DNA of 52,515 nt from a virus. Lineage: Duplodnaviria; Heunggongvirae; Uroviricota; Caudoviricetes. The position numbers and the translations under genes were made by a program. The notes under the pieces are model-generated. The model saw only the letters and a program-made list of their open reading frames with translations. It had not been told where the DNA came from and made no database searches. The first letter of the stretch is position 1. Every line of letters begins with the position of its first letter. Where the stretch lies: IMG/VR virus record IMGVR_UViG_2724679237_000006, positions 1 to 52,515 of that record; one strand, given 5' to 3'. Positions 1,542 to 52,515 of this stretch are shown here, piece by piece.

Positions 1542-1583
1542 AGCGACCTCCCTTAACGTGGTGCTGCCGCTATTCTAAGTTGC

Positions 1584-21765: not shown

Positions 21766-23517
21766 ATGATTCAGGACGCTTTTGTGCGCCAGCGTGCGCG
21801 ACAACTTTACTGGCAGGGTTACCCGCCCGCAGAAATATCACGTCTGATGGGAATAAACCCGAACACGATTTATGCGTGGAAAAAACGCGACCAGTGGGAT
21901 GAAACGCCACCCGTGCAGCGTGTCACGCAGTCCATCGATGCGCGCCTTATCCAGCTTACTGAAAAACAGAATAAAACAGGTGGTGACTTCAAGGAAATAG
22001 ACCTGCTGACCCGGCAGCTTAAAAAACTGCATGATGGCCAGCCGGATGCGAAGGCCACAGGAAAGAAAGGCCGGGCGAAAAAACTTAAAAATCATTTCAC
22101 GCCGGAACAGATTGCCGCACTGCGGGAAAAAATTACCAGCAGGCTGGCCGGACATCAGCGCAAATGGTTTGAGGCTATCGGTGCCTGTGAGCGTGCCGGA
22201 GTTACTGACAGGATGATTCTGAAATCCCGACAGATTGGGGCGACCTGGTATTTTGCACAGGAAGCACTGCTGATGGCGTTACGTGACGATGTGGCACAAC
22301 CTTACCAGCGTAACCAGATTTTTTTGTCAGCGTCGCGTCGTCAGGCGTTCCAGTTTAAAAACATCATTCAGAAGGCTGCATCTGAAGTTGATGTGGAGCT
22401 GAAAGGGGGCGATAAAATTATCCTCTCCAACGGCGCAGAGATGCATTTTCTCGGCACTTCTGCGGCCACCGCGCAATCGTACACGGGGAATCTGTATTTT
22501 GATGAGTTTTTCTGGACGGGGCGTTTCACAGAGCTGCGCAAGGTGGCCGCTGCTATGGCAACGCTGGATGGTTTGCGGTGTACCTATTTTTCCACGCCAT
22601 CAAGTGAAACACATGAGGCGTATGCATACTGGAATGGTGATCGCTGGAATGAAGGGCTTCGTGCTCATAAACGTCAGCATTTTGATGTGAGCTGGAATGC
22701 ACTTCATAACGGCCTTATCTGCCCTGACTACATCTGGCGGCAAATTGTGACGCTGGAAGATGTGGTCAATCAGGGATGGACGTTAACCAGCATTGACAAA
22801 ATCCGACGCAATAACACTGAAGACGAGTTCCGCAATCTCTATATGTGTGAATTTGTTCGCGAAGGGGAATCGGCATTTAACCTGAATATCCTGATTGGCT
22901 GCGGTGTTGACGGATACGACGACTGGAAAGACTGGAAACCTTTTGCTCCCCGCCCGATGGGGAATCGCCCGGTATGGATTGGGTATGACGCAAACGGCAG
23001 CAGTGGCAACGGCGACAGCGGCGCTGTGTCCGTGGTGGTTCCTCCGGCTGTTCCTGGTGGCCGTTTTCGAACGGTGGAGACGCGACGCGTTCAGGGGCTG
23101 GAATTTGAAGAACAGGCCAGAGTCATTGAAGAGTTCACGTATCGCTACAACGTGGAACACATCGGCATTGATGTGACGGGCGGGAACGGGGAGGCTGTTT
23201 ATCAGATAGTGAAACGGTTTTTCCCTGCGGCTATCCCGTACACCTTCACGCTGTCATCAAAACGGTCGCTGGTACTGAAAATGCTGCAAATAATGCGTGC
23301 CGGACGGTGGGAATACGATCGCGCTGAACGTGAGCTGGTTGCGGCCTTTAACGCCGTGCGTAAGGTAAAAACGGCGGGTGGTTTCATTACTTACGAAACG
23401 GACCGTGCTAGGGGGATCAGCCACGGCGACCTTGCGTGGGCAACCATGCTTGCAGTCATTAACGAACCGATTGGCGGCGAAGGAGAAAACGAGCGTTTCA
23501 CGGTTATGGAGTTCTGA
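21766..23517 (+). CDS. P: Terminase ATPase (large) subunit P
   Basis: 583 aa, divergent from O, followed by portal. Confidence 0.85.
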   Translation: MIQDAFVRQRARQLYWQGYPPAEISRLMGINPNTIYAWKKRDQWDETPPVQRVTQSIDARLIQLTEKQNKTGGDFKEIDLLTRQLKKLHDGQPDAKATGKKGRAKKLKNHFTPEQIAALREKITSRLAGHQRKWFEAIGACERAGVTDRMILKSRQIGATWYFAQEALLMALRDDVAQPYQRNQIFLSASRRQAFQFKNIIQKAASEVDVELKGGDKIILSNGAEMHFLGTSAATAQSYTGNLYFDEFFWTGRFTELRKVAAAMATLDGLRCTYFSTPSSETHEAYAYWNGDRWNEGLRAHKRQHFDVSWNALHNGLICPDYIWRQIVTLEDVVNQGWTLTSIDKIRRNNTEDEFRNLYMCEFVREGESAFNLNILIGCGVDGYDDWKDWKPFAPRPMGNRPVWIGYDANGSSGNGDSGAVSVVVPPAVPGGRFRTVETRRVQGLEFEEQARVIEEFTYRYNVEHIGIDVTGGNGEAVYQIVKRFFPAAIPYTFTLSSKRSLVLKMLQIMRAGRWEYDRAERELVAAFNAVRKVKTAGGFITYETDRARGISHGDLAWATMLAVINEPIGGEGENERFTVMEF

Positions 23518-24563
23518 TGAGCAGAAAAAATAAAAAAGTGCGCATGAGTTCACGCATTGATCTCGCTGATGTGCTCAGGAAAGAATCGTCGCTCAGTGCA
23601 TTCACATTTGATGGTCCTTATCGCCTGACTGGGCATGACCTGCTGGACAATATGTACTGTGCTGATAACGGGCGGTGGTATGAAACCCCGGTGGACTGGT
23701 ACGGTCTGGCAAGAGCTGCCCGGCAAACGTCCTGGCATCAGTCTGCGCTTTACTTTAAGCGCAATGTATTACTCGGTTGCTACATCCCGCACCCGTTGCT
23801 TTCCCGGCAGGATTTCTCGGCGCTGGCGCTGGACTGGTTTGTGTTCGGTAACGCATTCCTTGAGCTTCGAAGCAATATGCTCGGCGAACCGCTTAAATTA
23901 CGGCACGCCCTGGCGAAATACATGCGACGCGGAAGCGATCTTGAATCATGGTGGTATGTGCAGGATGGTAAGGACGCGTTTCAGTTTCGCCCTGGTAAAG
24001 TGTGCCACCTGATGAATCCTGACATTAACCAGGAAATCTACGGCATGCCGGAATATCTCGGCGCATTACTCTCGGCCAGCCTGTCTCATTCGGCGGACAT
24101 GTTCAGAAAACTGTATTACGACAACGGATCCCACGCCGGGTGCATCATCTACATCGGTGCAGCGCAGGTAAACCGCGAAAGCATGGACTCCCTGAAAGAA
24201 ACGCTACAGGGTGCACGTGGTGGTGGTGCGTTTAAAAACGTGCTCATTCATGCGCCCAACGGGGGCAAAGAGGGGGTGCAAATTTTGCCGTTCCAGCAGA
24301 TCACCGCAAAGGATGAGTTCATGAATGTTAAGGCGGCATCCCGTGATGATGTGCTGGCTGCGCACCGCGTTCCGCCGCAACTGATGGGGGCGATGCCGGG
24401 TGAAAAAAGTGCGTTTGGTGATGTGGAGAAGGCCGCGCGGGTTTACGCAATTAACGAGCTGATGCCCGTCATGGAGGCCATGAAGCACATCAATGACTGG
24501 CTGGGCGAAGAGGTGATCCGCTTTAACCCTTACGCACTGTTAGACACCCAGCCCACAGCCTGA
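23517..24563 (+). CDS. Q: Portal protein Q
   Basis: 348 aa directly after P (ATG overlaps the P stop). Confidence 0.85.
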   Translation: MSRKNKKVRMSSRIDLADVLRKESSLSAFTFDGPYRLTGHDLLDNMYCADNGRWYETPVDWYGLARAARQTSWHQSALYFKRNVLLGCYIPHPLLSRQDFSALALDWFVFGNAFLELRSNMLGEPLKLRHALAKYMRRGSDLESWWYVQDGKDAFQFRPGKVCHLMNPDINQEIYGMPEYLGALLSASLSHSADMFRKLYYDNGSHAGCIIYIGAAQVNRESMDSLKETLQGARGGGAFKNVLIHAPNGGKEGVQILPFQQITAKDEFMNVKAASRDDVLAAHRVPPQLMGAMPGEKSAFGDVEKAARVYAINELMPVMEAMKHINDWLGEEVIRFNPYALLDTQPTA

Positions 24564-25096: not shown

Positions 25097-25408
25097 TTAT
25101 TCGGGAAATAACGCCCGGATATTTCCGGCTATCTGACTGGTTATCTGTGCGGTGGGCGCTGGCTGTAACATGTGGCGTTCTGCCCTGGTTTGTGTCACTG
25201 ATAACGCCTCATCATCAGCCCATGCAGACAGTCGGTAAGCCTCTGCCGGATTCATTTTCAGAAGTGCCAGCCCGGCCAGAAAAGCCACGCGTTGGCCGCT
25301 TTTGCGGGCTTCTGGTGTAAGGCTGTCCAGCCAGTCGCATGCTTTGCCTTCGTTCTTGACGGCGGCTGGCTTCAGATAGAAACTTATTCTTCTGGTTAAT
25401 GTCGCCAT
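25097..25408 (-). CDS. parR: ParR-like centromere-binding adaptor
   Basis: Aligns with plasmid R1 ParR as recalled: ISFYLKP...CDWLDS...ER......A.LAGLAL....P and C-terminal I.GNIRALFP. Confidence 0.8.
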   Translation of the reverse strand: MATLTRRISFYLKPAAVKNEGKACDWLDSLTPEARKSGQRVAFLAGLALLKMNPAEAYRLSAWADDEALSVTQTRAERHMLQPAPTAQITSQIAGNIRALFPE

Positions 25409-25414
25409 GGAGGG

Positions 25415-26374
25415 TTACTCCTTATCCATAGCGTACAGACCGTTAACCAGAGCAAACTGTGGCACCCCGTCTGTGATGAAATTCGCATTGACTCCATAGA
25501 CTTCATGGACTGCGGGTGCCACAATCTCCGCTCCTCCACCGACAACCAGCACCCGCCCGTAACCCGAAAAGCCCGCGAGTGCGCGGATCACGCGTTGTTT
25601 TAGTGTCTCCTCCTTTTCACGAATAACTGCCATCAGGCTGTTGTAATGCGCGTCATTGTGGATGTGCCGGCGCAGCCAGGCTTCATCGTGACGATGTTCA
25701 ATAACGGTACTGGCGACGTGGTGACTGGTACGCATGCCGTTGGCGGCCATCACCGACAACACGGCATCGGTCATCAGGGAAACGCCCACATGTGGATCGC
25801 AAAATACCTGGCTGATGCCTGCCAGTTGCCCCTGAACCTTTGCCACATCCAGCGTTGTTCCGCCTAAATCCACAATCAGCAGAGATTCAAACGGACTCAT
25901 GTCAGCCAGTGCCTTAAAGCCAGCCGGAATGGATTCAGGCATAACCCGCACGTTGCGGATAGTGAATGCTTCACCGTTCTGGTACTCCACAGGGCGCAGG
26001 ACATTCGCTTTTTTGCGGTTGATGTTGGCCATGTCCGGCTGTGCGTTTGTATCGAAATACTCGCTCAGTGGCAGAGTGACAACCACGTCCACTTCCTGTG
26101 GTGTGATACCTGATTTGACCAGCGCGTGATGAATGGCAATGACATTCACATCGCTGTACTGGTATTGCGTGTCGGTCGTCTGGACAAAGCGATCGCTGAC
26201 CGGATCAAAACCATAGCGCACGCCATCAAGCATGTAGTTCGCGGGCTGCGTGCCACCGAACGGCGCAGACCATTCCGACTTGAAGCTGTTCGGGCTGATG
26301 GCGTTGCGGCGTTCGCCGTTCTCAGTCCATGCCAGCTTGATGTTGGTGGAGCCGTCGTCGATGCAAATTTTCAT
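25415..26374 (-). CDS. parM: ParM actin-like segregation ATPase
   Basis: MKICIDDGSTNIKLAW...ISPNSF...YSDVNV.A.HHAL..SG......VD.V.T.PL.E......IDLGGTTLD...GGGAE match R1 ParM/StbA along the full length. Confidence 0.9.
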   Translation of the reverse strand: MKICIDDGSTNIKLAWTENGERRNAISPNSFKSEWSAPFGGTQPANYMLDGVRYGFDPVSDRFVQTTDTQYQYSDVNVIAIHHALVKSGITPQEVDVVVTLPLSEYFDTNAQPDMANINRKKANVLRPVEYQNGEAFTIRNVRVMPESIPAGFKALADMSPFESLLIVDLGGTTLDVAKVQGQLAGISQVFCDPHVGVSLMTDAVLSVMAANGMRTSHHVASTVIEHRHDEAWLRRHIHNDAHYNSLMAVIREKEETLKQRVIRALAGFSGYGRVLVVGGGAEIVAPAVHEVYGVNANFITDGVPQFALVNGLYAMDKE

Positions 26375-26402: not shown

Positions 26403-26516
26403 TCGTTTACGGGATTCTGAAATCCCGCTTTTGCCTGTTTTGTGCGCGTTTCATATATCGCGGCGTGTTTTTCGCTCATTTACGGGATTTGTGAATCCCG
26501 TTTCTGTCTGTTTTTT
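26403..26516. repeat. parC-like centromere: two ~40-bp direct repeats each with a 16-bp palindrome, upstream of parM
   Basis: tttacgggattctgaaatcccg...ctgtttt (26404-26442) and tttacgggatttgtgaatcccg...ctgtttt (26476-26516); inner palindromes gggattctgaaatccc and gggatttgtgaatccc. Confidence 0.55.
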
Positions 26517-29271
26517 GTTTTCGCTGGTCAGGCCACCGCAGCAGGTCTGCTTTGCGGCGGGCGCGTTCAGTGGTTTCACTGATTCTCTGTGCGTGCTCTG
26601 CGTCACGGATGGTGCGCAGCATGTCAGAAAGTACGGTAACGGGTGTTTTCATGGTGTTCTGGTCCTGCTGAATTGTGGATGCCAGGCGTGCGGCGGCTTC
26701 TGGGTCTGATGCCCCGAGCTGTTTCAGATAGCTGGAAACCGGGTTATGGCGGATTTCCGTGCTGTTTACGCCGTGATTACGGCTCAGGCGCTGCCAGAGT
26801 TGTGTGATTCGGCTGTCCGGTCGGGTATCCGGTTTACGTACAATTTCAAATCCCTGCGGTGCAATGATGCTGCCGTCAACGTACAGACTGCCGCCCCGTA
26901 ACAGGTGCTGCATCTGTTGTTCACCGATATGCAGGCCGAGAGATTCGGCAGACTCCCGCCATTCTTTAGCGAGTAACTCGTGGTTATCAGGCAAAGGCCG
27001 CGGCTGTTTGCGGCTCTGTGTCCAGTTCTGCATTTCATCACTGTTGTTTTTTGCCTGTTTGTCACGCAGCGAACGCATCAGCGCCCGGCTTTCGTGCCGT
27101 TTCAGTGAGCGCATCCATTCATCCACATCAACGCCGTCAGGAAGCTGCGGCCACGGTGCTGGCCGTTCTTCCGGCTGTTCTGTCCCGTTGTTGTCCGTTT
27201 CCTGTACACGGGGACAGTTATTGCCACGAGTCCAAGGGGCGGCAGGGCCGCCCTGAAGGTCAAAACCATTTTCGCGGGCGCTGTCTTCCGCTTCCGGTTT
27301 ACGTCTTACCAGCTTCCAGTTATCCGGGTGCGTGCACACGCGGGAAGACTCCCCGATTTGTGGCGACCAGATCCCGTAAATCTGTACGCTTTGCTCGCCG
27401 TAATCGTTCAGCTCTTCTGCGAGGTCGTAGGCGGTGCGAATCAGGTAATCCTTGCGTGGAACAAGTACGCCACCCTGTTTCTCAATGTAGGTGGCAAAAC
27501 ACCCGGCATCAGCGGCAGCGAGTACCGCATCCATTGCGTCATTTTCCAGACGTTGTGGACCTTCCGGGTTGCGGGCCATCTGACTGGCAAGGCGGCGGAG
27601 TTCACGCCATACTTGACGGGAGGGGATACCAAAGAACTGGAACTGGCGGACGCGGTGAAGGCGCGCCCAGCCGATGGCGCGTTCCACGCTCTCGGCCATT
27701 GATTTTCCGGTTTCGTGATCAACGCGTGGCTTGCCTGTTTTCGGGTCAATGCCATCCACGGCGCGGCTGTCCAGGTTCTTTCCGATGTAGGTGGCGATGT
27801 AGCTGGTCGGCGTACCTTTCGAACCGTCGACGTACTCTGCCTTAAAGCGCGGAGTTATGTCATTGCCCAGCTCGTGGCGGTCTTCGCGAATGGCAATATC
27901 ACGGGTGATGTCCACGATGCTGTCGATTTCTTCAGGATGTGCAAAGACCATCATGTGCCAGTGCACGGTGCCGTCATGGTGTGGCTCCACCGTGCGGATG
28001 CCATACCAGCGCAGGCCGTCGCGATTCAGTTTTTTGCGGACCGCCTTAAAAAAAGTGTTAACCAGGTAATCACTGGAATCGCGCATGGTGGCGCCGTTCC
28101 ATTTGGGATTCGGATGACCGTTCTCTGTTGTAGCGTGGTATTTTGACGGGCAGGTGACAGTCAGAAACACCGCTCTGTCGCCACGGGCTTCGGCCAGAAG
28201 TTCCAGTCCCTTCATGGTGGCCATCATTTCTGCCTTACGGTGGACCGGGTTACTTACTCCCGCGTAATACACTGTCTCGAGATCAATCGTGAACCCGTCT
28301 TCATTTTCCAGCATGAAACTTTTCAGGAAATCGCGTGTTTTCTCGCGCTGTGCGCGAAATTCACTTAATGCGTCCTGACTCAGATAGGGTGATGTTTTTC
28401 TGGAAACCAGACAGGCAGCGCGGAGTTGTTCCTCTCTCCATTCGCAACGTAAAAGCCACAGTTTGCGTTTCCACCAGTCCGCACAGGTCAGGCGGAGGAT
28501 TGCACCCGGCAGCAGTTCCGTGTCCGGTTCGTTCTTCCGGTCTTTGTCTGTTGTCAGTGCGTCATAATGCGGCGGCACTGTGTGCAGATGTAACGCCATG
28601 CGGGCCAGCATCTGATACGCCTTCAGCGTTATATCCATGGTCAGCTCGCCGTCGGTCGCGCCACAGCCATCGCAGAGTTTTTCGAAGGTGCTGCTGAACA
28701 TTGCCGCCGTCATGACGGCCAGCGTCTGTATCTGGTGCTTGTTGAGCTGTGGCAGGTACAGCAAATCGTCCAGACGTTCACGTCCGGCAAGGGAGCGATA
28801 ACCCGGAGTCAGCCAGCGACGGTCGGTGCGGGCCAGGCGTTCGAATATTTTGCGCAGGGTTCCGCTCGCATAGCGTTCCGCCTGCTGGTTCTTTTTGCCT
28901 TTCTGGTGGCCAGATTCCTGTTTTTTGCGCAGGAAAGAGAGATGGCGGATAAGCGGATCACGCAGATAGGACGGCAGCAGACGCAGCGAGGCCATGGCTT
29001 CATCCACCGCACCGCGTGCCTGCTTTCTGGCTTCTCTTGCCAGTGTGATGACTTTGTCCTGTTTTTCCTGTGCGTCCAGGCTTTTATTAATCAGATTGCC
29101 CAGTGGTGCAGCGGAGAACGCCGCATCAGCCATTTCCTGGCGGCGCTCGTTCTCTGCCCGGTAGGCATCCAGCCAGGAAGAAAGAAGGGAGGGGCGGACA
29201 GGCTCCCCCGTTCCCTCGCGACCGACTGCATGGCGTGGTTGTTGCCAGTCTCTGATGTACTCCGTTGCCAC
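26476..29271 (-). CDS. A: Replication initiation endonuclease, gpA-like (HUH rolling-circle initiator)
   Basis: 931 aa; HHDGTVHWHMMVF (HUH motif) and SYIATYIGKNLD (catalytic Tyr region) as in P2 gpA. Confidence 0.8.
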   Translation of the reverse strand: MATEYIRDWQQPRHAVGREGTGEPVRPSLLSSWLDAYRAENERRQEMADAAFSAAPLGNLINKSLDAQEKQDKVITLAREARKQARGAVDEAMASLRLLPSYLRDPLIRHLSFLRKKQESGHQKGKKNQQAERYASGTLRKIFERLARTDRRWLTPGYRSLAGRERLDDLLYLPQLNKHQIQTLAVMTAAMFSSTFEKLCDGCGATDGELTMDITLKAYQMLARMALHLHTVPPHYDALTTDKDRKNEPDTELLPGAILRLTCADWWKRKLWLLRCEWREEQLRAACLVSRKTSPYLSQDALSEFRAQREKTRDFLKSFMLENEDGFTIDLETVYYAGVSNPVHRKAEMMATMKGLELLAEARGDRAVFLTVTCPSKYHATTENGHPNPKWNGATMRDSSDYLVNTFFKAVRKKLNRDGLRWYGIRTVEPHHDGTVHWHMMVFAHPEEIDSIVDITRDIAIREDRHELGNDITPRFKAEYVDGSKGTPTSYIATYIGKNLDSRAVDGIDPKTGKPRVDHETGKSMAESVERAIGWARLHRVRQFQFFGIPSRQVWRELRRLASQMARNPEGPQRLENDAMDAVLAAADAGCFATYIEKQGGVLVPRKDYLIRTAYDLAEELNDYGEQSVQIYGIWSPQIGESSRVCTHPDNWKLVRRKPEAEDSARENGFDLQGGPAAPWTRGNNCPRVQETDNNGTEQPEERPAPWPQLPDGVDVDEWMRSLKRHESRALMRSLRDKQAKNNSDEMQNWTQSRKQPRPLPDNHELLAKEWRESAESLGLHIGEQQMQHLLRGGSLYVDGSIIAPQGFEIVRKPDTRPDSRITQLWQRLSRNHGVNSTEIRHNPVSSYLKQLGASDPEAAARLASTIQQDQNTMKTPVTVLSDMLRTIRDAEHAQRISETTERARRKADLLRWPDQRKQKTDRNGIHKSRK

Positions 29272-33295: not shown

Positions 33296-34297
33296 ATGTC
33301 GGTTCGTAAGATTCCATCAGGTAAATGGCTTTGCGAATGTTATCCTTACGGGGCATCGGGAAAACGTATTCGTAAACAGTTTGCGACAAAAAGTGAGGCG
33401 CTCTCTTATGAGCGCCGTTTAATGAATAGTAGAGTTGGAGACGAGTTTCAAGATGGTTCTGGTCCTCGTCTTTCTGAGTTGGTTGCTCGTTGGTTTGAGA
33501 TGTACGGTAAAACCTTGTCCTCTGGTGCAGAGCGCAAAGTCAAACTTGAGTCTATTTGTTCCAGGCTGGGAGATCCATTTGCTTCTCAGTTTGACAAAAA
33601 TATGTTTGCTACTTATCGGGAAAGGAGGTTATCAGGAGAATGGAATCCCAAGGGGAAGAAAAAACTTAGTGAAGCAACCGTTAATCGCGAGCAGTCATAT
33701 CTACATGCTGTTTTTGCCGAACTGAAGCGCCTTGGGGAGTGGTCTGGTGAAAACCCCCTGACTGGCATTCGCAAGTTTCGTGAGGAAGAAAAGGAATTGG
33801 CGTTTCTGTATGTAGATGAGATTGAACGCCTTCTGATTGCGTGTGATGAGTCACGGAATAAAGATTTGGGGGTTGTTGTCCGTATTGGGCTTGCGACTGG
33901 TGCTCGGTGGAGTGAAGCTGAAGGATTAAAGCAATCTCAAGTGCTGCCCGGTCGAATCACATTTGTTAAAACTAAAGGAAAGAAGAACCGCACTGTACCG
34001 ATTTCACCTCAATTGCAGGCTATGCTTCCTAAAAAACGAGGAGCGTTATTTTCACCATGTTATGAGGCTTTTGACGCTGCAATTAAGAGAGCGAAGATCG
34101 AGCTTCCTGATGGGCAATTAACTCATGTGCTACGTCACACGTTTGCCAGTCATTTTATGATGCGGGGAGGAAATATTCTTGTGTTGCAAAAAATACTGGG
34201 GCATAGCGATATAAAAATGACTATGCGTTATGCGCATTTTGCTCCAGGTCATTTAGAGGCTGCAGTTGAATTGAACCCTTTTGACAATAGAGGGTAA
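33296..34297 (+). CDS. int: Tyrosine integrase, P2 Int-like
   Basis: 333 aa; GKRIRK.F..KSEA, GARWSEA, RITFVKTK..K.RTVPIS, LRHTFASHFMM.GG.I..LQ.ILGH....MTMRYAHFAP match P2 Int as recalled, including catalytic R..H..R..Y. Confidence 0.9.
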   Translation: MSVRKIPSGKWLCECYPYGASGKRIRKQFATKSEALSYERRLMNSRVGDEFQDGSGPRLSELVARWFEMYGKTLSSGAERKVKLESICSRLGDPFASQFDKNMFATYRERRLSGEWNPKGKKKLSEATVNREQSYLHAVFAELKRLGEWSGENPLTGIRKFREEEKELAFLYVDEIERLLIACDESRNKDLGVVVRIGLATGARWSEAEGLKQSQVLPGRITFVKTKGKKNRTVPISPQLQAMLPKKRGALFSPCYEAFDAAIKRAKIELPDGQLTHVLRHTFASHFMMRGGNILVLQKILGHSDIKMTMRYAHFAPGHLEAAVELNPFDNRG

Positions 34298-34588: not shown

Positions 34589-35605
34589 TCATTTTCTCTG
34601 GCCACCAACTACGGGCACTACTTTAACTTTCCGGTCATATGCTGCTGTCTGTCGCGGGTTCTTATGCCCGGAAATTGCTTGCTTCTCTTCCAGGCTGCCT
34701 TCCAGATCAGAGATACCTTTTGCTTTCAGATCATGAAATGTGAAGTCTATTTGCAGATGAGGATATTTTTCCTGTGCTGCCGCTTTGACATCACGCCAAC
34801 GAGAGTTAAAACCATCACGGGTATACTTGCCACCGGTAGTTTGATGAATCACAAACAGGCTACTGATTCCCGTTTTTAATGGCAGAGAACGAGCCAGAGC
34901 TATCGCTTTCTGCAGACGAGGCGACCAGGCTTTGATTTGCTTAACGCCGGTTTTTCCCTGACGAATGTAGATCCCGGAATCGAACAGCTGGTCTTTCTGC
35001 AATGAAAGTACATCACTCTGTCTGGCCACGCATAAGTAGGCAATCTCCATTGCTACGCGAACAACATCAGGAGACACTTCATAAACGGCCTGATATTCTT
35101 CATCCGTAATATAACGTTCGCGAGCTTTCTCTTTAAACTGTTTAACTCCCTGACAAGGATTCCTCTGAACATAACCTCGTTCATAACCCCAACGGAATAC
35201 CCGGGACATAAAGCTTTTTTCCCTGTTTGCCTGAGTTCGGCTTGATAAACCGCGTTGATCCATATAGCGCCGAATATGTTCAGGTTTGATTTTATCCGGG
35301 TCGATCTTCCCGAAGACAGGCAGAACTTTTCCGGAATATTTTGTGTAGTCTTTCCGGGTTTCGACTGCCAAATCCATAAAATCAGGGGAGGTCATGAATT
35401 GTTCCGTGAGCGCCTGAAAAGTATTTCTTTCTTTTTCGTCACCGACCGCTTTTTCATATGCCAGCCATACGGCTGATCGTGGTGCATCCAATGCGCACAG
35501 GCGTATCGCTTTGTTATCTTTATTCCTGAATTCGTAGGCCGCTTTGCCCTGGTAAACACGAGGCGGCATCCAGTTATCTGCTGGGTTCTTTCTCTTTCCG
35601 GCCAT
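34589..35605 (-). CDS. int: Tyrosine integrase (lambda Int family) of a second element
   Basis: ORF 34589-35635; N-terminal arm-binding-like MAGKRKNP..NWMPPRVY and C-terminal catalytic region (HDLKAKGISD...GH....TAAYDR). Confidence 0.85.
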   Translation of the reverse strand: MAGKRKNPADNWMPPRVYQGKAAYEFRNKDNKAIRLCALDAPRSAVWLAYEKAVGDEKERNTFQALTEQFMTSPDFMDLAVETRKDYTKYSGKVLPVFGKIDPDKIKPEHIRRYMDQRGLSSRTQANREKSFMSRVFRWGYERGYVQRNPCQGVKQFKEKARERYITDEEYQAVYEVSPDVVRVAMEIAYLCVARQSDVLSLQKDQLFDSGIYIRQGKTGVKQIKAWSPRLQKAIALARSLPLKTGISSLFVIHQTTGGKYTRDGFNSRWRDVKAAAQEKYPHLQIDFTFHDLKAKGISDLEGSLEEKQAISGHKNPRQTAAYDRKVKVVPVVGGQRK

Positions 35606-35837
35606 TAAATATTGCTCCAAAATCAGGTTCATCATCTTTTCGCGTCGTCACCTCCTGTAAATTGCGAAATTTTATTGGGTTCATGAAATGGCCCCAGGTT
35701 GTTTTTGGGTGTCCGTCAGCCCTTTCCATGAAGAAAATTCCAGCCCGGCGAAGAGCCTCACATTGCTTTGATTTAAGTGGGCTTCCCGTCAGCTCGACCA
35801 TTTCTTCTCTGGTGATTATGTCGTGATCGCTTTTCAT
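35574..35837 (-). CDS. Excisionase-like / small DNA-binding protein
   Basis: 87-aa ORF immediately upstream of and overlapping int; ITREEMVELTGSPLKSKQCEALRRAG is HTH-like. Confidence 0.4.
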   Translation of the reverse strand: MKSDHDIITREEMVELTGSPLKSKQCEALRRAGIFFMERADGHPKTTWGHFMNPIKFRNLQEVTTRKDDEPDFGAIFNGRKEKEPSR

Positions 35838-42047: not shown

Positions 42048-42272
42048 ATGTTAAGACATATTGACCGCATTACCTGGCGTAACGGCTGGCACCTGAATGG
42101 GCGCCCGGCACATGTTGCAGAGATCCGCCCCATATTCGATGGCCGCGTCGCAGCTGCACGTTCTGTGTGGGAAAAGTACGAAGAAGAAAAAGCGAAACTG
42201 CGTGAGCAAAATCTCTCTGGCGCTGCCTATGAGGCTGGCTGTCGCGTTCTCTCAGAGGCTTTGGGCATATGA
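42048..42272 (+). CDS. Hypothetical protein
   Basis: 74-aa ORF. Confidence 0.3.
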   Translation: MLRHIDRITWRNGWHLNGRPAHVAEIRPIFDGRVAAARSVWEKYEEEKAKLREQNLSGAAYEAGCRVLSEALGI

Positions 42273-43279
42273 ACATCCTCCCGTTACTTGATAGACCCAT
42301 AGCCTTCCAGAGAAGTTTTATCCGTCTTGAAATGGGCGTGACTGCCGCATTGTTTCTGTCGCAGTTGACGTACTGGACAAACAGAACAACTGACGACGGC
42401 TGGGTATATAAAACCCAGGATGAGTGGGAAGAGGAAACAGGGCTTTCACGATACGAGCAGGAGGGCGCGCGCAAAAAACTACGTGGTCTCGGCGTCTTGC
42501 TGGAACGTAAACAGGGCTTGCCTGCCAGGCTGTACTACAAAATCGATAATGATGTGTTGTGCCAGCTACTTACGTCCGCACACAAGGATGCGGAAAAACC
42601 ACATACAGGTGAGGGGAAAACCACCAGGCCTGTACGTGGAAAACCAACAAACATTCTTACAGAGAATACAACAGAGAATACTACAGAGATTATAGATCCC
42701 CCTAACCCCCAGGGGGGAGACGGCGACGAGACCATTCTCGCTGATGCTCAAAAAGCACTGGCTAGTTACAACGAGCAAACCAACACGCGTTGTCGCGACG
42801 TTAAACCGTTCGTTACGCTGCTGACTCCGACAAAAACGCGAACCGGTTATACCGTCGCGGAAATCGAACTGGTGATCCGCTGGGTGTTGGCAACGTGGCA
42901 CCGTCGTAGCGGTAGTATGCCCAAAATCGCAAATATTTGCCGTGTAGGACGCTTTGATGGCTACTTGGCTGACGCTGAGGTCTGGGCTGTCGCTGAGGCT
43001 GCTGTAGACCCCTCTGAGGTCGTTAACGGCTACAACGAGATTTTCGCTGATTTACTGCCTGAGGCTGAAATCGACACAGACCGCCGCCGGGCGATCATGA
43101 AACTACTGGCACACATGCGGTCGCAAACTCTCGGGGCGTTCCTGGGGTATTTCGAAAAATTCCGTGATACCGCACCTGAATTTTATTTCGGTGGTGAGGA
43201 TCGCGACGGCTGGCGGGCAGGGTTTGATTACCTGATGAAACCGGAAACGCTGCGTAAAACCAGGGAGGGGGCATTATGA
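42269..43279 (+). CDS. Replication initiation / replisome organiser protein (O-like)
   Basis: 336 aa immediately upstream of, and overlapping, the DnaB-like helicase gene; family assignment is by context. Confidence 0.5.
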   Translation: MNILPLLDRPIAFQRSFIRLEMGVTAALFLSQLTYWTNRTTDDGWVYKTQDEWEEETGLSRYEQEGARKKLRGLGVLLERKQGLPARLYYKIDNDVLCQLLTSAHKDAEKPHTGEGKTTRPVRGKPTNILTENTTENTTEIIDPPNPQGGDGDETILADAQKALASYNEQTNTRCRDVKPFVTLLTPTKTRTGYTVAEIELVIRWVLATWHRRSGSMPKIANICRVGRFDGYLADAEVWAVAEAAVDPSEVVNGYNEIFADLLPEAEIDTDRRRAIMKLLAHMRSQTLGAFLGYFEKFRDTAPEFYFGGEDRDGWRAGFDYLMKPETLRKTREGAL

Positions 43280-44667
43280 ATCCGGAAGAACTGGAAGCGA
43301 TCGTTCTCGCTGGTCTGATTAACGGTGGCGCGACGCCTGACGCGTTTGATGTGATTGCCACCACTCCGGAGGAAGCTTTCAGCATTGTGTTTCACCGCCG
43401 CGCTTTCAGCGAAATCAAAAAGCAGGCACTGGCGAACGGCATGATCGACATGTTGTTTATCAGCGAAGCGCTGGGCGGTTCCAGCCTTGCGGATCTGTCT
43501 CAAATATCCCGGATCCCGGCAACGGTACCGAATCTGAAAGGCTATGCCGGGAAAATGGTGCGGGCATGGCGGAGCCGCAAAATGGCGGCATTGTTGCAAT
43601 CTGGCGCGGATGGTATCCGTAACGCTGTAAACCAGAGTCAGCGTGATGAGGTTATTGAATCTCATGTTGCTCAGGTGCTGGATATGAGCGCCGCTACCGG
43701 CACAGTCCAGCCGGTACACATCAAAGAGCTGTTACCGCTCTACATTGACACCGTTGATAAACGGATGTCTGGCGACGCGCAGGAAATGATGCTGAAAACC
43801 GGAGTCGAGGATCTGGATGTCGCCCTGGGCGGTATCAACATGACCGACCTTGTTGTGGTTGCCGGTCGTCCAGGCATGGGGAAAACGGAATTTACCCTGA
43901 AGATTATCGATGGCGTTACCGCAGATGGCGGCGGCGCACTGTTTTTCAGCATGGAAATGGGCGCTCAGCAGATTGTTGAACGTACCGTTGCCGGGGCTGG
44001 GAATATGTCCACGTCGCGTCTGCGTAATCCAAAAGAAATGGACGATGAGGATTTGACCAGATTAACCGCCGCGCTTGCAATCATGCAGGATCGCGATATC
44101 TGGATTGTTGATGCCACTGATTTGACGATTGAGCAGATCCGCGCCATTGCAGAGACTCATAAACGCCGTTATCCGCACCTGAAGTTGATTGGTGTTGATT
44201 ACATGGGCCTGATCAAAAAACCGAAGGCCGAGCGCCACGATCTCGCTGTCGGGCATATCTCCCGCAACATGAAGACTATGGCCATGCGTCTGCATACCCC
44301 TGTTTTTGCTCTTAGCCAGCTTTCCCGCCAGGTGGATTCTCGACCTGCTGGCCAGCGTCGCCCGGTGATGTCGGACCTGCGCGATTCCGGCAGTGTTGAG
44401 CAGGACGCTGACAGCATTTTGTTTTTGTACCGCGATGAAGTTTACACACCTGATTCACCTGCAAAGGGTATCGCCGAGGTGATTATCGGTAAAAACCGTT
44501 CTGGCGGGGCAGGTGAAATTATTTATCAGGAATTCCGGAATGGGCATTTCCTGCCAATTGATCAACACGTAGCACGCGAAAAATTACGCATCCAGAAGGA
44601 GGCAGAGCAACCGAGAAAACGTGAAAAACGGTATTCAAACAAAAACTTTAATACGGACCCCTTTTAA
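43276..44667 (+). CDS. Replicative DNA helicase (DnaB family)
   Basis: 463 aa; Walker A GRPGMGKTEF, RecA-like C-terminal domain (SQLSRQVDSR, DLRDSGSVEQDADSILFLYRDE). Confidence 0.85.
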   Translation: MNPEELEAIVLAGLINGGATPDAFDVIATTPEEAFSIVFHRRAFSEIKKQALANGMIDMLFISEALGGSSLADLSQISRIPATVPNLKGYAGKMVRAWRSRKMAALLQSGADGIRNAVNQSQRDEVIESHVAQVLDMSAATGTVQPVHIKELLPLYIDTVDKRMSGDAQEMMLKTGVEDLDVALGGINMTDLVVVAGRPGMGKTEFTLKIIDGVTADGGGALFFSMEMGAQQIVERTVAGAGNMSTSRLRNPKEMDDEDLTRLTAALAIMQDRDIWIVDATDLTIEQIRAIAETHKRRYPHLKLIGVDYMGLIKKPKAERHDLAVGHISRNMKTMAMRLHTPVFALSQLSRQVDSRPAGQRRPVMSDLRDSGSVEQDADSILFLYRDEVYTPDSPAKGIAEVIIGKNRSGGAGEIIYQEFRNGHFLPIDQHVAREKLRIQKEAEQPRKREKRYSNKNFNTDPF

Positions 44668-46516: not shown

Positions 46517-47353
46517 TTGGCGTCGCTGGTGGTGATGAAAAAAACACTAAGTGAGGCCACTGCGATGACAGTCCAAATATCTGCGGAATCCCTTTCTCCG
46601 CTACATCATAACCAACTTCCCGTCATCACTACTGAATTGCTTGCCAGTTTGTATGGCACGGAAGTAAATGGTATCCAGCAAAACTTCAAGCGCAACATCG
46701 CCAGATTTGTCGTAGGAAAGCATTTTTTTAAGCTGGAAGGTAATGAATTACGCGACTTCAAAAACAGACTGACAGATAGTCAGTCAGTTGCTAAACATAC
46801 CCGATCCCTCATTCTCTGGACAGAACGCGGCGCAGCTCGCCATGCCAAAATGCTGGAAACAGAACAGGCCTGGGAAGTTTTCGAAAAGCTGGAAGATTGT
46901 TATTTTAGCCAGCGTCCAGAGAGGCGGAGTACAACTACCGATGACCGTACTCCCTTGCGTGATGCCGTTAATATACTGGTCGGCAAGAAAGGCATGATGT
47001 ATCCCGATGCCTACACCATGATTCATCAACGCTTCGCCGTCTCTCACATAGAACAACTGTCACAGACGCAAATGTTAGAGGCGATTGAATACATCCACTG
47101 CCTGCTACTCGATGAAAATCACCCAACCATTCCAGATTTTTCTTTTATCACCACTATCAAAAATGGAAAAGTGACCGGGATGCGCCATGTTGCCAAAGGC
47201 GAACATCTGATGACCTTTGACGCTTTCAAAGAGATCGCTGAGCGGGCAGGGTATCTGGTGATCCACAGCGACAATCTGCGAAGTATGACACTGGATAAAT
47301 TGATGGTAATGGGGAAAAAGTCGGCTATATCCGTTGCTAATTCAGCATTTTGA
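46517..47353 (+). CDS. Phage antirepressor (Bro-N/ORF6N-like N-terminus, KilA-C-like C-terminus)
   Basis: 278 aa; HNQLPVITTELLASLYG...FKRN..RFVVGKHFF resembles antirepressor N-domains; start codon uncertain. Confidence 0.6.
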   Translation: MASLVVMKKTLSEATAMTVQISAESLSPLHHNQLPVITTELLASLYGTEVNGIQQNFKRNIARFVVGKHFFKLEGNELRDFKNRLTDSQSVAKHTRSLILWTERGAARHAKMLETEQAWEVFEKLEDCYFSQRPERRSTTTDDRTPLRDAVNILVGKKGMMYPDAYTMIHQRFAVSHIEQLSQTQMLEAIEYIHCLLLDENHPTIPDFSFITTIKNGKVTGMRHVAKGEHLMTFDAFKEIAERAGYLVIHSDNLRSMTLDKLMVMGKKSAISVANSAF

Positions 47354-47720
47354 CAGGTTGTTTGGGGCGGAAATACTCTATTTGCGCTTAGGATACTTGT
47401 TAGCTACTTCCACTTTTGTCACAAAGCGGACTATCTGGCTGAGCTGAGGGTCCGCAGTGAGTGAGGATCGAACATTTAAGCGTCGGTACTGATGACGGAT
47501 TTGAGGTATTTAAAATATTACAGGAGCTAGTGTGGATGTGACAGACATAAAAGTGGATGCAGTCAGAAAAGACATATGTATAGCAGGCTTCTTCGAGGAC
47601 TAGATCAATCAATAAGATTTAGATAAAATTGCAGTGTTAAATAAAAAGACTAGTAGTATTTAAACTTTAAGTGCGTTAGTAAGGTCGTGCAATTATATAA
47701 AACTAACGTTTTCTGAATGT

Positions 47721-48428
47721 TTGGAGAGTAAAATGTTAGAACCGCCAAAGAATTATAATGAAATGTTACCCATGCTCCATAAGGCAACTTTTATTACTAC
47801 ATTTATATTTTACCTATCATTGGTTATTTATGGCTACATACCATTGGTTGGCATTAATGCCAAGTACATTCCACCAATCAAAGACTACGAAGAATTTATT
47901 AAGTGGATATTAACATTCGGCATATTACCAATTGCATTCTCAATTTTTTGGTCTGTGATTAGTGGGGCTTTAGATCTACATAATAACGTGGCAAAAATTC
48001 TTGGAATAAGAAAAGCATGGGATAATTACTTAATTGTTAAACCATTGGCGCAAGTTGCAGGCATTACAAGAAAATTAACTAGTGATGAATCCTCCAAAGT
48101 AATGAACAAACTGTATTACCCAGAAGTTAATGAGTTAAAAGATAAACATTATGTTGAGCTCTTCTGGAATAAGGTTTATTACTTTTGGGTTTTCTTTGAA
48201 CATACTGTGATTGCATTTATTACTGTTTTAGTAATAAGTTTTGCTAAAATAACCCATTTACTCTCTGTAACCGGTTCTTTAAAAAATCTTTGGTTGTGGG
48301 TTATTTTTATTGTTGTCTTTAATTTTCTTATTTTTATTGCATCCGTTAAACCCAGAACTGAAGGCCAAGTCAGACAAATACCTGATGATAAGATAAAGGA
48401 ATTTTTTAATAATAACAGTATTTTTTAA
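47721..48428 (+). CDS. Polytopic membrane protein (4 predicted TM helices), unknown function
   Basis: 235 aa, AT-rich; hydrophobic segments FITTFIFYLSLVIYGYIPLVGI, ILTFGILPIAFSIFWSVISGAL, YYFWVFFEHTVIAFITVLVISFA, LWLWVIFIVVFNFLIFIASV. Confidence 0.55.
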   Translation: MESKMLEPPKNYNEMLPMLHKATFITTFIFYLSLVIYGYIPLVGINAKYIPPIKDYEEFIKWILTFGILPIAFSIFWSVISGALDLHNNVAKILGIRKAWDNYLIVKPLAQVAGITRKLTSDESSKVMNKLYYPEVNELKDKHYVELFWNKVYYFWVFFEHTVIAFITVLVISFAKITHLLSVTGSLKNLWLWVIFIVVFNFLIFIASVKPRTEGQVRQIPDDKIKEFFNNNSIF

Positions 48429-49094
48429 ATGAGGTTAGTTTTGAATTACAAAATAAATGGAATGACTATACGTTCAGAAAATGCAGCAAAACCGCATACT
48501 ATGCCATCTAACTATCTCTGTAACCATATTGAAAATTCTGTTAAAAATGGCATAGCCCTTGATTTCGGATGTGGAAAGCTTAGATATTCAGAACAATTAG
48601 TAAATAAATTTGAAGCTGTGACGTTTTTAGATTCCAGAAAACAGTTAGAAAGAGTGCAAATTATCAGAGGCGTACAAACCACAATTCCAGAGTATGTGGC
48701 TAATAATTATAAAAATGCTAATGTTGTCCCTTTTGAAAGTATAGATAAAATAAAAGATAATTATGATTTCATACTTTGCGCAAACGTGCTTTCCGCAATT
48801 CCATGCAAATCAACAATTTACAAAATCATCAATGAGATTGGGAGATTATTAAAAAATGATGGTGAAGCAATTATTGTTAATCAATACAAAAGCTCTTATT
48901 TCAAAAAGTATGAGACTGGAATAAAACATTTGCATGGATATATATACCAAAACTCTCGCAATGCTTTCTATTATGGCTTATTGGATGAGAATATTGTAAG
49001 TAAAATTTGCTTGGATAACAATTTAGCAGTAATAAAGTCATGGAGCAAAGCTGGCAGTTCATATGTGGTTGTTGGTAAAAATAAACATAATTAG
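48429..49094 (+). CDS. Class I SAM-dependent methyltransferase-like protein
   Basis: 221 aa; motif I-like IALDFGCGKL, acidic residue after beta-2 (VTFLDS), motif IV-like DFILCANVL. ATG directly abuts the upstream stop (TAAATG). Confidence 0.5.
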   Translation: MRLVLNYKINGMTIRSENAAKPHTMPSNYLCNHIENSVKNGIALDFGCGKLRYSEQLVNKFEAVTFLDSRKQLERVQIIRGVQTTIPEYVANNYKNANVVPFESIDKIKDNYDFILCANVLSAIPCKSTIYKIINEIGRLLKNDGEAIIVNQYKSSYFKKYETGIKHLHGYIYQNSRNAFYYGLLDENIVSKICLDNNLAVIKSWSKAGSSYVVVGKNKHN

Positions 49095-49421
49095 TAAATT
49101 TAAAAATAATATTAGAGGGTGCCATTTTCTTATTACTTATTAACTCGCTGGGGTAGGGGCAACACGCCCCACCTCATCAAGTTACTGCAGGATTATAGAC
49201 TTTTGTCAAAACGTTGGAAAAATTCAGTACAAACTTTTCCATGTTTTTCCTAATCATAGATAATGATGCTCACTTATGTTAACAACTTCTTGTACATAAC
49301 GGTCTTCTTCAACAGGACAGCTATAAGTGAAGAAATAAAGTCGATAAACAATAAAGAGGCTCCAAATAAATATTATTCAATGAAGCCTGCTGTTTATTAT
49401 TTGTTATTATTAAATCGCTAC

Positions 49422-50321
49422 TTATAATTCAACAATTTTTAGTATTATATCAATATTATTTAGCCTTGCAATCTCTGATGAATCGTTTGCAATTTTATCT
49501 TTTAAATTATCAATGTTAATCATATCTTCAGAGCTAATACAAACCATATCACCTTGGTTAACTTTTGATTTGTTCACTATGGCTTGAATAACAGACAGAT
49601 CGTCCATTACACCTCTCAGGAATTTAACCATGCTTTGATCCTTGAAATCAGATATCGATTTTGAACGTTGCTTACGTTGGATTGTTCCTTTTGTAATTAT
49701 TTCGTTAATTTCTTTTAAACCGGCAAGCATATCAGATATGCTTCCTTCGCAACTCATCCTGTGTTTAATAGCATTGCGATTAATAACATTGAGTATTATT
49801 TCGAGTGAATCTCTATCATCCCATGGCAATAATAATGTATAATCCTGATGGCGATGAATGGCATCAAGCATATCAAGGATCATATTTTCATCTGCTTTAT
49901 CGCAAAGTTCATTTACAAAATAGCTGGGGTCGATTACTTTACAATAACTTGGAACTGAGCATTTTGAGCTTTTACAAAACCCAAAAATATATAAAAAAGG
50001 GTATATGTCTTTTAGACTCTTTCCTGATTTATTTTCTTTTTCAAAGGCTGCGATTGTTTTTTTAATTTTTGCCGGGGTTGCTTTCGTTGTAACTTGAACT
50101 GCTATCATGTTTTTATTGTCAGCTAAATCAATGGCGGGAAAGTTAACTTTAATCTGATTCATGTTTTCCAGTTCCCCCATTTTCAGTGCGCGAAACATAT
50201 AAATGGTCAATGACTCAATCATTCTTTCCATGTCATGAAAGCCAGTCTGTTTGCGTTGTTCGATATAAAGCTGAAGTAGCGCAATATCTTTCTGTAAGTT
50301 ACTAATAAGTGGGGCAATCAT
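49422..50321 (-). CDS. SMEK-domain-like protein (N-terminal domain), unknown function
   Basis: 299 aa; N-terminal region ...LENMNQIKVNFPAIDLADNKNMIAVQVTTKATPAKIKKT resembles the SMEK domain signature as recalled. Confidence 0.45.
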   Translation of the reverse strand: MIAPLISNLQKDIALLQLYIEQRKQTGFHDMERMIESLTIYMFRALKMGELENMNQIKVNFPAIDLADNKNMIAVQVTTKATPAKIKKTIAAFEKENKSGKSLKDIYPFLYIFGFCKSSKCSVPSYCKVIDPSYFVNELCDKADENMILDMLDAIHRHQDYTLLLPWDDRDSLEIILNVINRNAIKHRMSCEGSISDMLAGLKEINEIITKGTIQRKQRSKSISDFKDQSMVKFLRGVMDDLSVIQAIVNKSKVNQGDMVCISSEDMINIDNLKDKIANDSSEIARLNNIDIILKIVEL

Positions 50322-50854
50322 AGCTAATAATCCTTTTCAATTAAGTAGGGGATGTGTTTGAGCTTCTTTATTTGACTGTTAGTTTAATTTCTTGTTTTCA
50401 TATTAACAAGCTCTACAATTTTATCAAGATTTCTCAAAAACTAATCCTCCGTGTAAATCCACTAACTATGCTGAATTTATTCCGCTGTGAAACATGTCCG
50501 CTCATGGCTGTGAGTTCAACGGGTCGATGCAACGCCATCCACTCAGTAAAATTGTGTAATTCCAGTGAGCAGGCGAATCTTCAGTATGCTCTAGTTTCTT
50601 ACTCACACCTGCTTATGCTTTAACTAGGTACAATGTAGATAAACTCTCATGTTGATTTATCGCCATGATCACATTTCCGGAAGAAAAATTTTGTTTGTAA
50701 CCTTGCTAGATGAGACAGTATAGATATCATTACATATGAAACAGTACATTAGGGAACACTGAAGGCCGTAACTTTAAAAAATATAATTAATTGTACATAA
50801 TTTTATAACCATCAAGATGGTGGCAATTATATAAGTAATAATAAGGGTTGATTA

Positions 50855-52207
50855 ATGATTAAATTCACAGAAAAGGAAATACAAAATTACATATGGGAAA
50901 ATAGGAACAATTTTCCCGAACTGCTTATTGAACCTGCAGGTCTTGAAGTACTTGAATTCAACGAAGATCTCTCTGATGTAACAGCACAACTGCTAATAAA
51001 AAACAGAATAAATAGTAAACTATCCAATCTTCACTCTAAGCTTTATGGACTGGAATTTATCGGCTGCGAAGTTCCTTTAGAACAAAATTCAAACTCAACA
51101 ATTAGAGCCGATTTTTTGGCTATATTCTGTGATGATACTGGGCTTGCTGTCATAGAGCTTAAAAAAAGTGAACAGACTGAAAGGCAAGCATTCACTGAAT
51201 TGTTAGCATATTCAAACCATATGACAACATTATTTCCATCCATGACGAAAAATGACAGTGTGTATATTTTAATATCACCAATGGAAACCAGAATAGCACG
51301 TGATGCTGTCATCCAAAGTTTAATATTTGACAATAGGGATATCATTGCTTTAATTCCAACATTCTCTGATCCTCTTGATATTACCTCTCTTAAACTTGAA
51401 TTATGGATTCCAGACCAAACAGAGTTAGCGACTTTCTCAAATATTGCATTTAGAGAAGATAATTTTAGTGTCTGTAAATTATCCTGGGAGTATGATGCAG
51501 AGCGATGGGATGCAGCTAGAGGAGAAGAACTTTTACATTCATTTGTTAGTCAATTTGATAACATTTCCTGCCTTGCAGCTCAGTATATGGAAGAATCTGG
51601 AGTTCATGGTTTTACTTATTGCTCTCAGTTATGGCCTGAATTATCTCAGGCATTACCTTTTACGAATTCATTAGTACTAGTTGGCATGAATCCTTATGCT
51701 GTCGGGAGTGTCCAGCATTTATCCACAGAATGCGATAACTATGATGATATACCAGACCCAAATGCTTACACTCCTCACATATCTGAATTAATTGGTAAAC
51801 TAGGTGAAGGAGAATTATATGAGGATAATATTGATGTCCTAAGTGGTTTACATCGTGTATGGAGCTCTCAGTTATATCGTATAGGTAAGCAGGTAATTGA
51901 ACTCACCACTAGAAATACAGATGGGAAATACGTCCACGTTGAATATGGCTTTATGAATTGGGAAATCTATCAAAGGTCACTACTTGAGGATGTTTTCTGT
52001 GAAAACTTCGCTATTAGGTCTACAGGTTTAATACGACATCTCTATACTGACATTCTTAAATTAGATTATGATTTTTGTAAAAATAACGGATTAGAAAATC
52101 ACCCTATTCATGGAGACATGCCATACTTAGGTGTCAATTTTCTTAAATCCCAACAGCACTTTAGAAAATTTATTTTGCGAATGTTCTATGCCGAAATAGA
52201 TGCGTAG
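50855..52207 (+). CDS. PD-(D/E)xK nuclease-like protein, unknown function
   Basis: 450 aa; N-terminal region has a D...E.K arrangement (IRADFLAIF...GLAVIELKKSEQTE) typical of the PD-(D/E)xK fold. Confidence 0.45.
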   Translation: MIKFTEKEIQNYIWENRNNFPELLIEPAGLEVLEFNEDLSDVTAQLLIKNRINSKLSNLHSKLYGLEFIGCEVPLEQNSNSTIRADFLAIFCDDTGLAVIELKKSEQTERQAFTELLAYSNHMTTLFPSMTKNDSVYILISPMETRIARDAVIQSLIFDNRDIIALIPTFSDPLDITSLKLELWIPDQTELATFSNIAFREDNFSVCKLSWEYDAERWDAARGEELLHSFVSQFDNISCLAAQYMEESGVHGFTYCSQLWPELSQALPFTNSLVLVGMNPYAVGSVQHLSTECDNYDDIPDPNAYTPHISELIGKLGEGELYEDNIDVLSGLHRVWSSQLYRIGKQVIELTTRNTDGKYVHVEYGFMNWEIYQRSLLEDVFCENFAIRSTGLIRHLYTDILKLDYDFCKNNGLENHPIHGDMPYLGVNFLKSQQHFRKFILRMFYAEIDA

Positions 52208-52515
52208 TGAGATTTTTTGATTTATCTCTGCTGGAGAAAATTCATGGGTGAGGGAAGAGATAGATAATATTGAAAATAAAACTTTCAAAAGATGTTGAAA
52301 TAAAAAGCATGATCTAAATTATTTTGGCATTCATTTCATGTGAAACAGCTCTTCTAAAAATCTATACAGGCATAGGTGGAATTTTCTCATGATTTTTTAG
52401 TTGTAATTTATCTTTACTGAATAATATATGGGGAGGATTGTCGCCGTAAGCGGCTCGTCAGAACCGTATTGATATTTACTGAGAGCTCAGATCAACTTTC
52501 CAGGGCAACAGATCG

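Follow-up and report, generated by a model that had tools for sequence, protein, structure and literature searches.

SMEK/Mrr nucleases, whose defining domain is named 'Mrr' in the Argonaute papers, are known to supply the killing function in immune systems of several components (short Argonautes, Lamassu and STAND NTPases), in which activation depends on a large sensor and usually on higher-order assembly. SMEK is the nuclease effector of the KjAgo/SMEK-APAZ heterodimer, and the Kordia SMEK domain has been reported to be active within this SMEK-APAZ/pAgo complex (PMC10810196, PMC12205087). It is likewise the N-terminal nuclease effector domain of short Lamassu LmuA proteins (PMC12663957). Here we describe a much smaller protein, in which an N-terminal SMEK domain is joined to a family-specific C-terminal domain, and which we think, on balance, probably represents a defence nuclease that is carried by mobile elements, stands alone and is regulated by its own C-domain.

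The gene lies in a stretch of 52,515 nucleotides, which we call the window and which comprises positions 1 to 52,515 of the IMG/VR Caudoviricetes record IMGVR_UViG_2724679237_000006. Two prophages appear in tandem in the window. The first (~1-34300) has its tail-fibre genes at 9075-10566, its integrase at 33296-34297 and, from the ORF layout, a P2-like look, while the second, lambdoid, starts at 34589 and carries an integrase (34589-35635, minus strand), replication genes (42269-44667) and an ORF6N anti-repressor (46517-47353). In the first, presumed P2-like prophage, positions 25097-26374 on the minus strand encode a 319-aa ParM/StbA actin-like segregation ATPase (PF06406, 6.7e-82, plus the ParM C-terminal domain) together with a 103-aa StbB/Plasmid_stab_B protein. 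This pair lies between a 348-aa ORF (23517-24563) and a 931-aa ORF (26476-29271), which we take to be portal and gpA, by ORF size and order only. If that is right, a plasmid-type partition pair occupies a locus where P2-like phages usually carry defence cargo; the pair itself gave no PADLOC match.

The SMEK gene was identified in the ORF list as an ATG-to-stop reading frame for 299 aa, with the ribosome-binding motif AAGGA located 9 nt 5' of the start codon.

49422-50321, minus strand: complete SMEK-domain gene, with its stop codon at 49422-49424 (ORF list, SMEK_N matches, RefSeq near-identity, dN/dS)
50322-50502, minus strand: region 5' of the gene and kept with it, presumed to hold its promoter and ribosome-binding site; the block common to the second E. 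coli allele ends near 50502

The gene sits within a segment of 30-36% GC that starts near 47.4 kb, the rest of the window having 43-60% GC. When this AT-rich locus was scanned for consensus promoters, matches did not rise above chance or shuffled sequence, and the promoter is presumed for that reason; a terminator scan likewise did no better than shuffled sequence, and repeats were unremarkable. At the DNA level, the window gene is 98.9% identical to that of E. coli EC28 and four other complete genomes, and the coding sequence at the EC28 locus is WP_097478789.1, which RefSeq names 'SMEK domain-containing protein'. In these genomes, as in the window, the gene is part of a lambdoid prophage, flanked by the Q antiterminator on one side and by the replication genes and an ORF6N anti-repressor on the other; the interval from the replication genes to Q is a classic accessory-gene position in lambdoid prophages. 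A comparison of the two E. coli alleles yielded a dN/dS of 0.27 (0.36 for the N-domain and 0.21 for the C-domain), from which it follows that both halves of the gene are coding and under purifying selection. The window allele has Leu at residue 165 (49827-49829), which is a His within an S-L-H-P-W/Y consensus in at least 90% of the 34 close relatives; this position is not conserved in the wider family.

An earlier note on this DNA had likened the N-terminal 120 residues to the SMEK domain and left the C-terminal 180 unassigned, and our analysis supports it on both counts. The profile search against the SMEK model, which that note had named as a check, returned strong matches to Pfam PF21941 SMEK_N (E=2.8e-23; 82.8 bits, cut-off 27; residues 9-120) and to NCBIfam NF033859 SMEK_N (E=1.1e-31; 108.6 bits, cut-off 30; residues 5-98), making this a bona fide SMEK_N domain by both model collections. 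Since the Pfam match spans only positions 2-108 of the 140 in the model, the window domain represents a divergent subfamily. The PADLOC model of the Argonaute-associated 'REase' (Aga_REase) was also matched (E=5.9e-20), at model positions 7-109 of 463 only. When a profile built from 34 relatives was compared with solved structures, it matched one, 26bh_D (E=9.3e-12), entitled 'the Mrr domain from Kordia jejudonensis Mrr-APAZ pAgo'. The NFPAIDLAD...QxT...K block aligns between the family profile and this structure, and N60, F61, P62, I64, D65, D68, Q76, T78 and K85, all invariant in the 34 relatives, are the same residues in 26bh_D. The alpha/beta restriction-endonuclease core fold of Mrr-like PD-(D/E)xK nucleases is present in the protein.

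49893-50321, minus strand: SMEK / Mrr-like PD-(D/E)xK nuclease domain, residues 1-143
50214-50216, minus strand: near-invariant residue E36
50127-50129, minus strand: near-invariant residue D65
50094-50096, minus strand: near-invariant residue Q76
50088-50090, minus strand: near-invariant residue T78
50067-50069, minus strand: near-invariant residue K85

Down to ~18% identity, E36, N55, D65, Q76, T78 and K85 are near-invariant, with E36, D65, Q76, T78 and K85 conserved in at least 90% of members. The full D...(D/E/Q)-x-K catalytic motif is absent: it reads D65...Q76-V-T78, with an invariant Thr at the lysine position. Judged from the sequence, K85, which is invariant and lies on the next helix, may take the place of the catalytic lysine. 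The missing canonical lysine counts against a defence nuclease, for which K85 or another residue must substitute, and it is in keeping with a non-defence role: the protein might process DNA or serve a regulatory function for its prophage or mobile element, form an addiction module, or be a nuclease in decay with a catalytically dead SMEK domain. Some database records do label relatives 'regulator', and literature searches with the protein accessions, and with SMEK combined with defence terms, found no study of, or experiment on, the SMEK-four-helix-bundle family. Nevertheless, we consider a non-defence role improbable, as both domains are under purifying selection, the acidic and polar active-site residues are invariant across ~18-100% identity, and the Kordia SMEK domain, for which activity is reported, shows the same QxT plus K configuration. 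Moreover, the spread of the gene over many unrelated elements speaks against a role bound to the life cycle of any one of them.

SMEK_N is also found on larger proteins: some of ~500 aa, the size of SMEK-APAZ and with the Kordia protein among them, others of ~1100 aa that combine SMEK with a STAND NTPase, and one of 1304 aa with a C-terminal PIN-TPR-GreABC domain. Because it occurs in each of these contexts, SMEK_N is a modular, swappable N-terminal effector.

The C-terminal half of the protein is a different matter, as no model in Pfam, NCBIfam, PADLOC or PHROG covers this region. Structure prediction, a step that the earlier note had recommended, yielded a predicted up-down four-helix bundle of ~140 residues, which gives generic fold matches only.

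49425-49853, minus strand: family-specific four-helix-bundle domain, residues 157-299
49761-49778, minus strand: near-invariant R182-N-A184-I-K-H187
49743-49748, minus strand: near-invariant E192-G193
Minus strand, same domain: near-invariant residues D169, G212 and K221

The domain has a conserved polar/charged site of its own together with a conserved Lys/Arg-rich loop, and D169, R182, A184, E192, G193, G212, K221 and L235 remain near-invariant down to ~18% identity. A search with the C-domain profile against 1.84 billion protein representatives returned only 77 proteins, all with the match at the C-terminus of ~290-320 aa proteins, bar short fragments and one weak outlier, and no other architecture carrying the domain was found among these representatives. 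Because of this search result and because SMEK_N is present in 46 of the 47 C-domain members scanned, the C-domain is exclusive to the SMEK_N architecture. None of the 34 close relatives departs from R182 or H187, whose R182-x4-H187 spacing resembles the Rx4-6H motif of HEPN domains. A HEPN identity was rejected, since no HEPN profile or fold match was obtained, H187 is often Asp in distant members (R182 staying at least 90% conserved), and the motif lies at the wrong end of the bundle.

The properties of the C-domain bear directly on a second alternative, in which the protein is a type IV-like (modification-dependent) or constitutive restriction endonuclease, whose C-domain dimerises and binds DNA or reads a modified base with no infection-triggered switching. 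The Mrr-like catalytic domain would suit such an enzyme, as would the Lys/Arg-rich loop, the invariant rather than fast-evolving charged site, the lack of a cognate DNA methyltransferase or any conserved partner, and the presence of two Mrr_cat proteins among the neighbours in our locus set, i.e. of restriction-type islands. PvuRts1I-type enzymes, with an N-terminal nuclease and a small C-terminal domain, have a similar size and layout. However, the prediction is of a plain four-helix bundle and not of a modified-base reader fold (SRA, winged helix or YTH), no PADLOC type IV model matches, and every characterised SMEK system is an activated collateral nuclease rather than a site-directed restriction enzyme, so that we regard a type IV-like enzyme as rather unlikely. 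Conversely, conservation of the C-domain equals or exceeds that of the nuclease domain, a pattern unlike that of many fast-evolving sensors of phage proteins and one that counts against a sensor reading of the C-domain.

How widely is this architecture distributed? Full-length relatives form 99 clusters at 90% identity, nearly all of 290-310 aa, from gamma-, beta- and alpha-Proteobacteria with a few in Campylobacterota, Verrucomicrobiota and Planctomycetota. An 83%-identical copy of the enterobacterial-type gene on a 3-kb contig labelled Streptomyces sp. (L003, NZ_JBFBIU010000052.1) is probably assembly contamination. In E. coli the gene was found in 152 of 5,426 complete genomes (~2.8%), on prophages, and a tblastn search with the protein against 50,697 deposited phage genomes found no homologue. 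When all ORFs within 5 kb of the gene at 33 loci were compared with one another, no recurring partner gene emerged, the sole recurrent 'families' being antisense ORFs inside the SMEK gene itself.

We then scanned three genes either side at 23 homologue loci, a scan in which not every match was assigned to its locus. Strong PADLOC matches among these neighbours were to LmuA and LmuB (two members each), HerA with DUF4297, PtuA, a CBASS cyclase with a 4TM effector, PDC-M01A/B, RT_IV, RT_V, PDC-S21 and AriA. Pfam matches were to Mrr_cat, S_4TM, SLATT_5, a pPIWI-associating nuclease (one), integrases and relaxases. The settings of the homologues thus include defence islands with Lamassu, Hachiman, CBASS, Septu and reverse-transcriptase systems, and individual loci illustrate the range of mobile elements:

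L082: homologue between a Lamassu operon and AAA_15/21 genes
L084: homologue preceded by Hachiman and a DUF87 ATPase, with a SymE toxin alongside
L076: homologue as a single-gene insert beside SymE and TacAT
L075, L077, L078 and L085: homologue adjoining a DUF6538 integrase
L088: homologue in an integrative conjugative element with AbiGi and ArdC
L089: homologue between the primase of a P4-like satellite and the satellite's end (att)
L087: homologue on a Citrobacter koseri IncHI2A plasmid

Published work counts the region from primase to att in P4 satellites among the minor P4 defence hotspots (PMC13586616). That the homologues lie in defence islands and hotspots is a plain observation here, and guilt by association of this sort is not proof of function. 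Two further features of these neighbourhoods were seen. A SymE-family toxin gene lies just 3' of the SMEK homologue at L076 (8407-8871) and L084 (8154-8369), and this adjacency in hosts as distant as Enterobacter and Cupriavidus suggests a shared type of hotspot and not a functional link. At Pseudomonas L079 (7958-10736; also L080 and L081), three genes lie 3' of the homologue in the same orientation, encoding a 219-aa protein without a Pfam match, a SLATT_5 two-TM effector protein and a 309-aa protein; these downstream genes may constitute a separate SLATT-based system or a local operon.

Turning to the immediate surroundings of the window gene, the earlier note had described it as convergent with the neighbouring operon. 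This was confirmed, with two genes on the plus strand and the SMEK gene on the minus strand, the latter converging on the abutting pair across a 327-bp spacer.

47721-48428, plus strand: ymfE-like membrane protein, with 68% nucleotide identity to K-12 e14 ymfE/ymfD; context and not a demonstrated part of the system
48429-49094, plus strand: ymfD-like class I SAM methyltransferase, with Methyltransf_11/12 and TehB-like matches; a context gene

The pair are diverged homologues of the e14 genes (68% DNA identity), whose products are a protein that RefSeq names YmfE and a class I SAM methyltransferase, and in K-12 it is the abortive-infection gene lit that adjoins ymfE/ymfD; a ymfE/ymfD-type pair thus adjoins two unrelated stand-alone accessory genes, lit and SMEK, in different prophages. 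In 151 of the 152 E. coli genomes with the SMEK gene the pair is present in the same convergent arrangement, a co-occurrence that reflects two or three lineages and not independent events. The three-gene block (window 47574-50502) recurs at 83.6% identity in a second lambdoid prophage (query 175-3103 of 47400-52515), where it has the opposite orientation relative to the phage backbone, and is also found on the Citrobacter koseri IncHI2A plasmid. The spacer (49095-49421) is conserved about as well as coding DNA across these three contexts, with a mean column identity of 86%. All of this speaks for a third alternative, a three-gene system in which, for example, methylation of self protects from the nuclease or a membrane-linked signal is involved. 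Yet the pair is missing at the loci of homologues with no more than 78% identity (in Pectobacterium, Yersinia, Enterobacter, Pantoea, Pseudomonas and further afield), E. coli EC05 has the SMEK gene without it, ~284 E. coli genomes, K-12 e14 included, have ymfE/ymfD without the SMEK gene, and the E. coli count comes down to those few lineages. In addition, the ymfD-like sequence contains no (D/N/S)PP(Y/F) DNA-methyltransferase motif and matches TehB and small-molecule class I enzymes only. We therefore see little likelihood of a three-gene system, which we retain as an alternative on account of the block on the plasmid. The pair is an often co-travelling but separable module; ymfE/ymfD as obligatory partners were rejected because each occurs without the other, and a restriction-modification pair with the ymfD-like enzyme was rejected on the same ground and for want of the DNA-methyltransferase motif.

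Within the spacer we observed a short hairpin rich in GC, GGGGC-AACAC-GCCCC, in which the changes seen in the plasmid copy are partly compensatory; Rfam gave nothing credible on the 327 bp. Two candidate small genes were discarded: a 54-codon ORF (49263-49427, plus strand), considered as a small toxin or antitoxin, is open in two copies and interrupted by a stop in the common allele, and a hydrophobic frame on the minus strand has no canonical start codon. A 450-aa ORF (50855-52207, plus strand) flanks the SMEK gene at its other end and diverges from it. Residues ~51-166 of its product have a weak HSDR_N / type II REase-like match (PADLOC REase_II E=0.0022; Pfam E=0.0026), and phrog_30092 is matched as well (4e-11). 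The ORF, which may be another nuclease-type accessory gene, is found only with the SMEK allele of at least 99% identity (5 genomes) and is missing from the block of the common allele.

We return to a stand-alone defence nuclease as the best explanation for the identity of the domain, the conservation of its putative catalytic residues, the exclusivity of the C-domain, the lack of a conserved partner gene and the location in defence islands. In such a protein, the Mrr-like PD-(D/E)xK domain would act as the nuclease effector, as it does in SMEK-APAZ, short LmuA and STAND-NTPase proteins, and the compact four-helix bundle would stand in for the APAZ/pAgo, LmuB/C or STAND sensor modules. Because the bundle gives generic fold matches only, it is purely by inference that we assign it the part of regulator. 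The C-domain, with its invariant charged site (D169, R182, A184, H187, E192, G193 and K221) and its Lys/Arg-rich loop, might hold the nuclease in check and release it on binding a feature of nucleic acid or some other cue of infection, by driving oligomerisation, or both. Once activated, the nuclease would be expected to cut either the invading phage DNA or all DNA in the infected cell, and in doing so could protect the lysogen population from superinfecting phages. Since no full-length PADLOC model matches it, the protein belongs to no defence system of PADLOC-DB v2.0.0 (2023), and this weighs against the reading, as do the lack of homologues in the deposited phage genomes and the Leu at residue 165 of the window allele.

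More tentatively, the SMEK-four-helix-bundle protein could be the founding member of an undescribed single-gene anti-phage system, its C-domain being a new minimal sensor or switch that works via the invariant D-R-x-A-x-x-(H/D)...E-G site; this we hold to be possible but short of probable. In its boldest version, the C-domain site would be a second, HEPN-like RNase centre, giving a dual DNase/RNase abortive-infection enzyme.

The SMEK domain call, which is in RefSeq, and SMEK as an effector domain were already known. What we did not find described in the libraries and papers searched are the family as a unit, its exclusive C-domain with the conserved site, and its stand-alone distribution across defence islands, none of it mechanistically surprising unless the C-domain is a new type of switch or a second catalytic centre. 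If defensive, a protein of 299 residues with a helical domain of 140 would be one of the smallest self-contained sensor-effector nucleases, and a tractable model for how such effectors are silenced and switched on. The gene, which is also carried on plasmids, conjugative elements and satellites in many Proteobacteria and is missed by current defence catalogues, could then affect phage host range, including the outcome of phage therapy. If inactive or non-defensive, it is simply a correctly annotated accessory prophage gene.

Among known systems, Lit of e14 is a positional analogue only. Like the SMEK gene, lit is a single-gene prophage element beside a ymfE/ymfD pair, but the two flank their pairs at opposite ends: lit and ymfE diverge, while the SMEK gene and the ymfD-like gene converge. 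RefSeq annotates Lit as 'cell death peptidase Lit', and in sequence this peptidase is unrelated to the SMEK protein. Mrr-family type IV enzymes (E. coli Mrr, PF04471) share the PD-(D/E)xK fold and a D...Q-x-(K) type of motif, and are similarly found stand-alone, without a methyltransferase, in restriction/defence islands. Against this, Mrr_cat gave no match to the window protein at E<=1, and the motif lysine is a Thr in the window protein. Mrr has its DNA-binding domain at the N-terminus; in the window protein the domain order is reversed, and the partner domain is a helical bundle and not a winged helix. Short Lamassu LmuA carries the same type of effector domain as the N-terminal nuclease described here (PMC12663957), yet neither the window protein nor its neighbours match an LmuA or LmuB model and the window contains no LmuB/LmuC. 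Lamassu genes do lie beside 2 of the 23 homologue loci, as complete separate operons, the one at L082 having its own LmuA. The neighbours of the SMEK gene in the window are a membrane protein, a methyltransferase and the 450-aa protein with the weak HSDR_N-like match. In short pAgo systems an APAZ domain follows the nuclease, which the window protein lacks (only 7-109 of 463 positions of the Aga model are matched), and no partner gene of any kind recurs beside its homologues at the 33 loci. The Kordia SMEK-APAZ protein ('SPARMA' / Mrr-APAZ) is ~500 aa long, with a C-terminal APAZ, and forms a heterodimer with pAgo, whereas the window protein is 299 aa long and ends in a four-helix bundle; what unites them is a homologous SMEK/Mrr nuclease domain, N-terminal in both proteins.
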